DNA from: Runella aurantiaca
Lineage (GTDB): Bacteria > Bacteroidota > Bacteroidia > Cytophagales > Spirosomataceae
Assembly (NCBI RefSeq): GCF_003339505.1
Contig: NZ_QPIW01000003.1
Coordinates: 184,471 to 248,470, forward strand
Direction: 5' to 3'
DNA: 64,000 nucleotides
Numbering within the stretch: position 1 is the stretch's first letter; the number at the start of each line of letters is the position of its first letter. The position numbers were made by a program, and so were the translations under genes. The notes below the pieces were generated by a model. That model did no database searches and was not told the origin of the DNA. It worked only from the letters and a program-made list of their open reading frames with translations. Below, in pieces: positions 60,482 to 61,758 of the stretch.

Positions 60482-60976
60482 TTAACTCATAATAGCTTGT
60501 ACGTAGTCTGGATTTGACCAATGAGACAGAATCATTTGCCCCAAAACTTCATTATATTCATCTTTTGTCAAATCTTCCTCAATAGGCAGCCTTGCACCTC
60601 TAAATAATTTCCCATTCTTAAATTTGACATCAACGTATATATGCGGTTTGCCATATACATCTTCAATGCCATGGTGGACATATCCAATAATACCCTTATT
60701 CAAAATAGGGTGTTTAAATTCTATAGTTTTCCCATCATCTTTGTATAATTCCATTTTTAATTCATATCTTTTGTCATAGCCGTAATCGAAGAGGTTAGGG
60801 TACTTCTCTTTCATCGTTCCTTCAACTGGTTGACTTTTTTCACCTACTTGCCTTGAATATGAATCACGAGCATATTGATACTCATCCATTTTTTCATTTT
60901 TGGGTAGTTGATTGGACAAATTATCGTGTATTATGAACCCGACAATAACAAGGACAATAATTATAAATATCAGCAT
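60482..60976 (-). CDS. hypothetical membrane-anchored protein (N-terminal TM helix + about 140-aa soluble domain)
   Basis: MLIFIIIVLVIVGFII gives a TM anchor. No catalytic motif. Confidence 0.5.
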   Translation of the reverse strand: MLIFIIIVLVIVGFIIHDNLSNQLPKNEKMDEYQYARDSYSRQVGEKSQPVEGTMKEKYPNLFDYGYDKRYELKMELYKDDGKTIEFKHPILNKGIIGYVHHGIEDVYGKPHIYVDVKFKNGKLFRGARLPIEEDLTKDEYNEVLGQMILSHWSNPDYVQAIMS

Positions 60977-61037
60977 TTTATTAAGTTAGATTTTGATAAA
61001 GTCCCAGAAATTTATTTAAATACTGACAATTATTATA

Positions 61038-61448
61038 TTAATTTAGTCGTAATAATATAATAGTAAGTGTTACAAAAAACAATGTAACTAAACAGCCAGT
61101 ATTTCTCACGTCAATTTTTGTAGGAGGGATTCCCTTAGCGTAGCAATGATTACAAATGCTAAAAGCAATTTTATGGGATGGTTCAATAAATGTTTTTCTT
61201 CCATCAATTGGGGCCTCTCCGCAAAAGTGACATATATCATTACGAATCAACCCTTTCGATGTTAAAAATTGAAACGCTTCAACATCACTAGTTATATGCA
61301 TAACAGTTAAATCGGGCATTAACCTATCCAGTTTGTAATCAATGTATCGTGGCTCACCATTAAGGATAAGCTTTTGACGAAAACCGTTATCATTTAGGGT
61401 TTTGCATAGGGCACCCATGTATAAATTTAGCTGTGAAATGTCTTCCAT
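61038..61448 (-). CDS. hypothetical zinc-ribbon protein with C-terminal TM tail anchor
   Basis: CHFCGE…CNHCYAKG gives four Cys (CxxC…CxxC). C-terminal 'CLVTLFFVTLTIILLRLN' is hydrophobic. Confidence 0.5.
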   Translation of the reverse strand: MEDISQLNLYMGALCKTLNDNGFRQKLILNGEPRYIDYKLDRLMPDLTVMHITSDVEAFQFLTSKGLIRNDICHFCGEAPIDGRKTFIEPSHKIAFSICNHCYAKGIPPTKIDVRNTGCLVTLFFVTLTIILLRLN

Positions 61449-61530
61449 ATTTTATTATTTAAGTAAAAATTTGAAAATATACCCAATATAATGGGTGGAT
61501 TGTTAAAAAGAAACAGCTCAGTTTTGGGCT

Positions 61531-61758
61531 GTGACAAAAATTCGTGATAACGGCTTCTTAAAAAGGTTTGGTGAAAACCTCCGTAGGCTCAGAGAACTGA
61601 AAGGTTTAAGCCAAGAGGAACTGTATTTCAGAGCCAATCTGTCTAAGAATCAGGTAGGTAACATTGAGAGGGGAGAAGTAAATACCACCATCAGTACTGC
61701 CTATGCCCTCTCCCAAGCTTTAGGGGTTGAACTACCCGAACTTTTCAAGTTTGAATAA
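61531..61758 (+). CDS. XRE-family helix-turn-helix transcriptional regulator (75 aa)
   Basis: 'LRRLRELKGLSQEELYFRANLSKNQVGNIERGEVNTTISTAYALSQAL' is a Cro/C1-type HTH. Confidence 0.8.
   Translation: MTKIRDNGFLKRFGENLRRLRELKGLSQEELYFRANLSKNQVGNIERGEVNTTISTAYALSQALGVELPELFKFE

Follow-up and report, generated by a model that had tools for sequence, protein, structure and literature searches.

An XRE-headed pair of small membrane-anchored proteins, one of them from an unnamed zinc-ribbon family, as putative cargo of an integrative element in Runella aurantiaca

In a stretch of 64,000 nucleotides from Runella aurantiaca (contig NZ_QPIW01000003.1, positions 184,471 to 248,470; the whole stretch is referred to here as the window), two adjacent small genes annotated in the databases as ‘hypothetical’ are transcribed away from a gene annotated as ‘helix-turn-helix’, whose 75-amino-acid (aa) product is a regulator of the XRE (Cro/C1) type. 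The two genes encode a 136-aa protein with a zinc ribbon and a hydrophobic C-terminal tail, and a 164-aa protein with an N-terminal hydrophobic helix. We consider it likely that the pair is XRE-gated cargo and that the tail-anchored zinc-ribbon protein and its N-terminally anchored partner act together at the inner membrane. The fuller reading, in which this cargo serves in exclusion or defence, is put forward more tentatively, at appreciably less than an even chance, and is drawn only from context and from analogy with the membrane proteins encoded in immunity regions. The features on which the argument turns are as follows.

60359-61752, minus strand: the XRE, 136-aa and 164-aa genes together, a discrete conserved block (78.7% identity to Runella zeae)
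60482-60976, minus strand: gene for the 164-aa N-terminally anchored protein (open reading frame list and hydropathy)
60887-60889, minus strand: M30, the alternative RefSeq start of the 164-aa gene (RefSeq annotation)
60905-60976, minus strand: hydrophobic helix of the 164-aa protein, residues 1-24 (hydropathy, AlphaFold2)
61038-61448, minus strand: gene for the 136-aa zinc-ribbon protein, predicted to be tail-anchored (open reading frame list, hydropathy, family alignment)
61041-61109, minus strand: hydrophobic tail of the 136-aa protein, residues 114-136 (hydropathy)
61092-61097, minus strand: G118-C119 motif of the 136-aa protein (family alignments)
61143-61232, minus strand: C73xxC76...C99xxC102 zinc ribbon of the 136-aa protein (sequence, alignment)
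61481-61496, no strand assigned: ACCCAATATAATGGGT, a 16-bp near-perfect palindrome and putative XRE operator (conserved, and unique in the window)
61531-61758, plus strand: gene for the 75-aa XRE/Cro-C1-type helix-turn-helix regulator, with a GTG start (HTH_3 match)

All three genes lie where a first-pass annotation, made from the sequence alone, had placed them, and its suspicion that the pairing might be uncharacterised is borne out, the pair being co-conserved as well: the products of the two membrane-protein genes are 77% (136 aa) and 90% (164 aa) identical to their counterparts in R. zeae, and the genes are adjacent on every Runella contig seen. The ratios of non-synonymous to synonymous substitution rates (dN/dS) against the R. 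zeae orthologues are 0.18 for the 136-aa gene and 0.11 for the 164-aa gene, and because of these values we take both to be real genes, expressed and constrained, that are evidently under purifying selection. Hydropathy (a Kyte-Doolittle mean above 1.6 over 19 residues) detected a single hydrophobic segment in each protein, at residues 1-24 of the 164-aa and 114-136 of the 136-aa protein, and AlphaFold2 placed helices at residues 2-23 and 115-135, respectively. The N-terminal anchor and the C-terminal tail of the original description are thus confirmed, the former with the proviso that it depends on the longer of two possible starts, as is the CxxC...CxxC zinc ribbon, in this case by alignment. 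The AlphaFold2 models were built from shallow alignments (3 and 2 sequences) and have a predicted local distance difference test score (pLDDT) of 58 for both proteins. The remote-homology and fold comparisons that had been recommended gave nothing to build on: Foldseek against viral structures found no match at E<=0.001 for either protein, and PDB profiles gave marginal similarities. No model in Pfam, PHROGs, PADLOC or NCBIfam matches either of them, so that the remark that none of the three gene products was recognizable applies to these two, for which there is no named family, but not to the regulator, which is readily identified by HTH_3 (E=1.9e-15, residues 17-71). Neither membrane protein falls into a described family, and no literature on either was found.

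How isolated is the zinc-ribbon protein? A word-indexed search with the 136-aa sequence returned only the R. zeae protein and one metagenomic relative. When these three sequences were combined into a profile and scanned by hidden Markov model (HMM) against 1.84 billion representatives, 88 proteins were recovered at E<=1e-3, 32 of them at E<=1e-10, and a second profile search gave a further 80 clusters. The 136-aa protein is thus a member of an unnamed family, which at 50% identity comprises 88 clusters or more. The 136-aa protein begins with an alpha/beta domain, ahead of the four-cysteine (Cys4) ribbon. In an alignment of 40 sequences with a mean column identity of 24%, four columns (C73, C76, G77 and C99) never vary and a fifth, C102, hardly does; the retention of these cysteines in so diverged an alignment means that the zinc ribbon is conserved and is no chance pattern. 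The arrangement CxxC-(15-32 residues)-CxxC is kept in 142 of 156 family proteins, only two of which have any hydrophobic segment ahead of the ribbon; because such segments are so rare, the ribbon domain is most probably cytoplasmic and the family proteins tail-anchored. The sole hydrophobic segment of the 136-aa protein itself is at its very C-terminal end, and the N-terminus has neither a signal nor a transmembrane helix. None of 40 diverse relatives is matched by any model in Pfam, PHROG or PADLOC (PADLOC-DB v2, which has no family for either Runella membrane protein), and a PDB profile search with the family gave marginal matches only, among them a ZZ-finger (8zg8, E=0.005) and the McsA zinc knuckle. 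The family is patchy and rare. A pattern scan of 185,579 species-representative genomes returned no relatives (nor did it find R. aurantiaca itself, which may have been masked), and neither of the Runella membrane proteins was found among annotated phages and plasmids.

The C-termini of the family are of two kinds, either ‘GC’ followed by a hydrophobic tail or a CFI-box-CTERM domain. A simple hydrophobic tail ends 82 of the 156 proteins, and 72 of these tails open with GC or xC; the CFI-box motif is present in 20. Four members (P0024, P0028, P0040 and P0022) match the NCBIfam model for CFI-box-CTERM, NF041770, at 62-73 bits (E=1e-17 to 1e-21) against a cut-off of 40 bits, the matching members tested being about 190-380 aa long. 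Among these zinc-ribbon relatives, those of about 200 aa carry the domain, and the first cysteine of the domain falls in the same column as Cys119, where the tail of the Runella protein starts. That protein differs in having only a hydrophobic tail of about 20 residues after the Gly-Cys and which matches nothing in NCBIfam, NF041770 included. All members of the close subfamily (alignments A4 and A5) keep the Gly-Cys directly before the tail. An unrelated 280-aa protein encoded next to one family member (locus L010, 6455-7297) ends in the same combination of KGC and hydrophobic tail. Gly-Cys plus hydrophobic tail may be a module used in common for anchoring or sorting. In P0044, residues 151-345, which follow the transmembrane tail, share 52% identity (E=5e-70) with a lipoprotein whose gene, at locus L021 (5321-5983), lies immediately upstream of the family gene there. 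This is a ‘Rosetta-stone’ fusion, from which it follows that the C-terminal end of the tail lies outside the cytoplasm and that the family is tied to envelope partners. A literature search on CFI-box-CTERM, on DUF3871 (see below) and on tail-anchored zinc-ribbon exclusion proteins found nothing relevant.

The second protein of the pair presents a different problem, namely where it begins. RefSeq (WP_147277006.1, WP_273216160.1) has it starting at an internal methionine, giving 135/136 aa and no membrane helix, and GenBank (RDB06905.1) has the long form, 164 aa from Met1. Between R. aurantiaca and R. zeae, codons 1-29 differ by five synonymous changes, five conservative ones and the in-frame loss of a single codon; ahead of the ATG, by contrast, the alignment fails, with out-of-frame indels. 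Met1 is favoured over Met30 on these sequence comparisons because codons 1-29 change in the manner of coding sequence and the region upstream of the ATG does not. The membrane topology of the long form is a prediction. At the search sensitivity available, homologues of the 164-aa protein were found only in R. zeae.

We examined 14 independent contexts of the zinc-ribbon family (the window, R. zeae, and loci given L numbers), a co-occurrence check that had been suggested for the pair and that gave a mixed answer. The pairing as such can still be called uncharacterised, but the zinc-ribbon protein is by no means unique, and its partner varies from one context to another. A small N-terminally anchored protein is encoded adjacent to the family member or one gene away in seven of the 14 (the window, R. 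zeae, L005, L006, L012, L017 and L021), and a divergent XRE gene is present in four (the window, R. zeae, where it is a pseudogene, L005, and L012/13). In five of the L-numbered loci (L005, L006, L012, L017 and L021) the anchored partners form a family of their own, with 26-48% identity and a GGMxxKY motif. This GGM partner occurs in either gene order relative to the zinc-ribbon gene, and also beside a CFI-box member (L021) that is only 27% identical to the window protein. The Runella 164-aa protein was tried in three ways as a member of the GGM family and rejected (hhalign probability 4-9%; an HMM score of 10.6 bits, contributed by the transmembrane helix); it is better viewed as a non-homologous analogue in position and architecture. 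Elsewhere the upstream partners are soluble proteins, of 206-221 aa (L008, L010, L023) or 119-124 aa (L015, L019). At L019 a 199-aa protein (1247-1846) encoded directly downstream of the family member contains ‘SCHG’ and ‘SSCKGG’ about 44 residues apart, in a caspase-like manner, and has no match in Pfam or PADLOC. The zinc-ribbon family, the 164-aa protein and the GGM partner family were all not found among IMG/VR viral contigs.

The pair does indeed point away from the regulatory gene, as originally described: the XRE and 136-aa genes are on opposite strands, with 82 bp between them. The regulator consists of its helix-turn-helix (HTH) domain only, with no neutralizing extension. Its best PADLOC model is the restriction-modification ‘Control_protein’ (E=1.2e-13), and against HipB/Y4mF-type antitoxins it scores weakly, at the level of the family (E=2.6e-8, short of the curated cut-off). 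Within the divergent intergenic region is the palindrome ACCCAATATAATGGGT, which occurs once in the 64-kb window (0.05 matches expected), and its core, CACCCAwTATAyTGGGTAT, is invariant in three Runella XRE-proximal intergenic regions with otherwise diverged flanks. It is probably the operator of the XRE protein, to judge from this conservation. The XRE proteins of the L005, L012 and L013 lineage are 38-47% identical to that of the window, and at the equivalent position this lineage has its own, twice-repeated palindrome, GTTATCATnnnTGAyAAC. The layout of a small HTH regulator divergent from an element operon is the same in the window and in R. zeae, and a palindrome conserved in the intervening region is as expected of a Cro/CI-like switch. 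We regard the XRE protein as the switch regulator of the element rather than as a dedicated partner of the membrane pair, because it is HTH-only and divergent, has a conserved palindrome, and has an R. zeae orthologue that faces the operon for the AAA_24 and DUF3871 proteins of the element, considered below.

There are also repeats beyond the end of the XRE gene. The 200-bp gap between its stop codon and that of a convergent gene for a YgjP-like peptidase has dense ACCCAACC/GGTTGGGT inverted repeats (61811-61951), and CTACCCAATATAT in the same gap resembles a half-site of the putative operator. The repeats may serve as a bidirectional terminator or as another site for the XRE protein, or may mark the junction of the element.

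On sequence evidence the three genes appear to be part of an integrative element inserted at a tRNA-Asn gene, and R. zeae provides the reference copy. There, a complete element of about 12 kb (L001, 4579-16711) lies between TTGATACACAA repeats, flanked by the same 11-mer as is found in the window (L001, 4579-4601 and 16686), so that both attachment (att) repeats and an integrase are in evidence. Its genes are, in order, those for an integrase, a 242-aa protein, HTH_17 and ANT proteins and a 707-aa AAA_25 protein, followed by the pair (136 and 164 aa); then come an insertion sequence, an XRE gene facing the opposite way, genes for proteins of 134, 159 and 126 aa, and those for the AAA_24, DUF3871 and a 79-aa protein. 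Window positions 61752-60359 align with L001 9710-11077 at 78.7% identity over 1406 nt, homology ending on both sides; the block is bounded by the XRE stop codon and by a point about 120 bp beyond the 164-aa gene and has a G+C content of 31-33%, compared with about 42% in its flanks. The XRE copy at the R. zeae pair (L001 9710-9935) is a frameshifted pseudogene, and the insertion sequence (rve transposase) is just downstream of the pair (L001 11120-12329). The second R. zeae XRE gene is intact, its product is 81% identical to the window XRE, and it faces the AAA_24/DUF3871 operon, with two different genes in the slot beside it, one for a signal-peptide protein and one for a lipoprotein-like product. 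The R. zeae element thus carries two XRE-headed cassettes, one of them decaying. We conclude that the membrane pair is accessory cargo in an exchangeable, promoter-proximal slot, with no core function in the element, because the block has sharp homology ends and is AT-rich and the slot is filled differently in R. zeae.

The remaining features of the element and its surroundings in the window are listed below.

57492-57569, strand not given: tRNA-Asn (tRNA search)
57616-57639, plus strand: att-like tandem, two copies of TTTGATACACAA, marking one end of the element (repeat comparison with R. zeae)
57971-58957, minus strand: DUF3871 protein (PF12987, E=1.6e-117)
58935-59936, minus strand: AAA_24 ATPase, longest open reading frame (PF13479, E=1e-13; phrog_1366, E=4.5e-77)
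59887-60237, minus strand: operon gene after the 164-aa gene, listed as an open reading frame of 125 aa (75% identity to the R. zeae 126-aa protein)
61962-62690, minus strand: YgjP-like metallopeptidase (PF01863, E=1e-55)
61962-64000, minus strand: type I restriction-modification neighbour genes, including the C-terminal part of HsdR, running off the window end (PF22679, E=3e-20)

Reading along the minus strand from the XRE gene, the order is 136-aa gene, 164-aa gene, 125-aa reading frame, AAA_24, DUF3871, an 86-aa reading frame and the tRNA, and the tRNA-Asn is followed by a terminator hairpin and the TTTGATACACAA tandem. The 125-aa frame is likely to start at MLTVTNY, giving a protein of about 116 aa, and its 126-aa relative in R. 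zeae follows the XRE-proximal slot there. No convincing intrinsic terminator was found between the 164-aa and 125-aa genes. Inside the longest AAA_24 frame there is a terminator-like hairpin of 13 pairs with a T-run (59835-59864, minus strand). Because of this internal hairpin and the shorter (296-aa) R. zeae orthologue, the true AAA_24 start is probably near 59798, which suggests that the terminator separates AAA_24 from the 125-aa gene. An Rfam scan of 57300-62100 found the tRNA only. The att-like repeat TTTGATACACAA has a single copy in the window, on the tRNA side, and no second att copy or integrase was found before the window end (base 64000). No capsid or relaxase genes were present in the parts of the element seen. 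AAA_24 and DUF3871 genes accompany the zinc-ribbon family in four of the 14 contexts (the window, R. zeae, L012 and L021); the element type that they define appears to be undescribed, DUF3871 being mentioned in a single paper, and it may, at a guess, be satellite-like or mobilizable. The first-pass placing of the genes in a mobile and defence setting beside type I restriction-modification is supported by the element at tRNA-Asn, the YgjP-like peptidase and the HsdR part, whose reading frame is open to the window end; the YgjP and HsdR genes converge on the XRE gene. At L012 a 1050-aa RecQ-like helicase (4109-7258; PADLOC DpdF, E=3e-92, and PsyrT, E=6.5e-67) is encoded 1.7 kb downstream of the module of XRE, zinc-ribbon and GGM genes, with a DUF3871 gene fragment upstream. 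Apart from type I restriction-modification beside the window module and this helicase, seven other contexts have no recognized defence gene.

How might such a cassette work? It is a classic pattern for exclusion and defence functions to lie hidden in small membrane proteins encoded next to a mobile element's switch regulator, and to our knowledge very few such proteins are known for Bacteroidota. A dimer of the XRE protein would bind the 16-bp palindrome between the divergent genes and thereby gate both its own promoter and the opposing operon, which we infer to comprise the two membrane-protein genes first and then the 125-aa, AAA_24 and DUF3871 genes. The 136-aa protein would present its alpha/beta and Cys4 domain to the cytoplasm, held at the inner membrane by the C-terminal helix that starts at the conserved Gly-Cys, and the 164-aa protein would be held there by its N-terminal helix; most likely the two would associate in a small complex of the inner membrane. 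This complex may take part in conflict between mobile elements, either by excluding incoming phage or element DNA or in defence.

Several observations weigh against this proposal. The pair has no homology to any known exclusion, abortive-infection, toxin-antitoxin or defence protein, the structure models are poor and the fold searches uninformative, and the membrane anchor of the 164-aa protein hinges on the upstream start codon. Nor is there detectable homology between this protein and the recurrent GGM partner. The integrase end of the element is not within the window, so the R. aurantiaca copy may be a remnant. Seven contexts (L006, L007, L008, L015, L017, L019 and L023) are without XRE, AAA_24/DUF3871 genes or any obvious mobile hallmark, and with about half of the contexts of this kind the family is not strictly one of mobile elements or defence. 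Finally, an XRE repressor would silence the pair in the integrated state, which is a poor fit to exclusion; the fit would be rescued if repression is leaky or if the XRE protein activates.

If conflict is not its business, the pair might be hitch-hiking cargo that serves cell physiology (envelope stress or membrane organization, say), its adjacency to the XRE gene being incidental. This has a modest chance of being right, one that falls well short of an even one. It would sit comfortably with the family members that lie between housekeeping genes in apparently chromosomal surroundings, with no mobile hallmarks (L006, L007, L008/9 and L023), as also with the want of any match to a defence model, with the failure to find the zinc-ribbon, 164-aa and GGM proteins in IMG/VR and with that to find the window proteins in annotated phages and plasmids. 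It does not so easily explain why the same AAA_24/DUF3871 element type recurs in four separate lineages, why homologous XRE proteins with lineage-specific operators accompany the family in two deep lineages, why the module is rich in AT and changes its place in the element, or why the family is patchy and rare, with no relatives in the pattern scan of species-representative genomes. Alternatively, the pair might be a membrane-spanning signalling or regulatory device controlling induction of the element, the zinc-ribbon domain sequestering or releasing the XRE protein or another regulator on an envelope cue, after the manner of membrane-anchored zinc-binding anti-sigma factors. We think this unlikely. 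In four lineages the pair directly adjoins the switch regulator, the same operons repeatedly include genes for envelope proteins, and the order of cytoplasmic zinc domain, transmembrane helix and periplasmic domain is realized by fusion in P0043, P0044 and P0079 and by a separate lipoprotein at L021; but only a minority of family members have a regulator encoded beside them, the proteins show no likeness to anti-sigma domains, the Runella zinc-ribbon protein lacks a periplasmic domain, and R. zeae swaps the pair for unrelated secreted proteins while keeping the rest of the element.

The resemblance to abortive-infection or toxin-antitoxin effectors that the first-pass annotation saw has fared less well. 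On that explanation the membrane proteins would depolarize or permeabilize the membrane, with the XRE protein as antitoxin or repressor. Abortive infection commonly relies on effectors that are small single-pass membrane proteins, the mobile setting next to restriction-modification genes is appropriate, and there is the weak antitoxin-like similarity of the XRE protein already mentioned. Yet no toxin or abortive-infection model matches in PADLOC, Pfam, NCBIfam or PHROG, the XRE gene is divergent and not co-transcribed, its product has only the HTH domain, most relatives of the zinc-ribbon protein have no XRE, and in R. zeae the pair-adjacent XRE gene is frameshifted with the pair still under purifying selection (though a paralogous XRE in the same element could compensate); we consider the idea improbable. 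It would be harder still to see the XRE protein as the controller (C) protein of the restriction-modification genes nearby, with the membrane pair unrelated to it. Its best PADLOC match and the palindrome upstream of its start are what a C protein would lead one to expect, but the system is of type I, with genes that converge on the XRE gene rather than follow it, the R. zeae homology block ends at the XRE stop codon, and the R. zeae orthologue (81% identical, with the same palindrome) is inside the element, that genome's restriction-modification genes being outside the att site. We give this explanation almost no credence.

Among known systems, the closest are the accessory membrane proteins encoded in the immunity regions of temperate phages and conjugative elements, those for superinfection or entry exclusion (the Sie, Imm and Ltp types, for example) and the two-gene membrane defences of prophages. 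These are alike in being small, fast-diverging single-pass or lipoprotein products, encoded next to an HTH switch regulator in a slot that is interchangeable between related elements. The Runella pair differs from them in having no sequence or fold similarity, in being transcribed with the presumptive early/replication operon and not with the regulator, and in belonging to an element in which, as far as it was seen, genes for a capsid or for conjugation are missing. The regulator is like Cro/CI-type XRE proteins and C proteins in being a 75-aa HTH_3 protein with a palindrome upstream of its own start and a divergent operon, but here only a single operator is visible, and there is no second, Cro-like regulator and no type II link. 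Type II toxin-antitoxin systems with an XRE antitoxin (HipBA, HigBA, MqsRA) also have an XRE gene beside small genes on a mobile element, the Runella arrangement differing in its divergent transcription, the want of a toxin family match or a neutralizing domain, and the many relatives (most of them) that are XRE-less. As for the ribbon, its CxxC...CxxC spacing is shared with ZZ-type and other Cys4 ribbons (PRT1 ZZ, McsA and Lar, the last with E=2e-4 for one relative, below cut-off); the family differs in having four conserved cysteines and one metal site, with an unrelated N-terminal domain and tail, and the matches are below significance.

A bolder generalization, which we regard as rather improbable, is that the zinc-ribbon family and its interchangeable envelope partners might constitute a modular conflict system that spans the membrane and has so far gone unrecognized in the integrative elements of Bacteroidota. 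Its partners would be the GGM family, the Runella 164-aa protein and the lipoprotein; the Cys4 domain, on the cytoplasmic side and tethered to the membrane through a ‘GC’ tail or CFI-box, would detect or block incoming DNA, and an XRE protein would gate the system in some lineages.

What is new here is the proteins themselves, the modularity of ‘GC’ tail and CFI-box, and the recurrent partnerships; exchangeable membrane cargo beside a regulator, carried by an integrative element, is already a familiar kind of thing. An apparent three-gene orphan has become a defined family of at least 88 clusters, with a Cys4 ribbon, a Gly-Cys junction, two sorts of C-terminal anchor, recurrent partners and a recurrent type of host element. 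If the pair proves not to block the entry of phages or elements, it would be one more conserved hypothetical cassette; if it does, it would represent a new defence architecture, and a function would be attached to the unstudied CFI-box-CTERM domain and to the AAA_24/DUF3871 elements. The module is therefore best seen not as a demonstrated system but as a solid lead for defence and exclusion screening in Bacteroidota.

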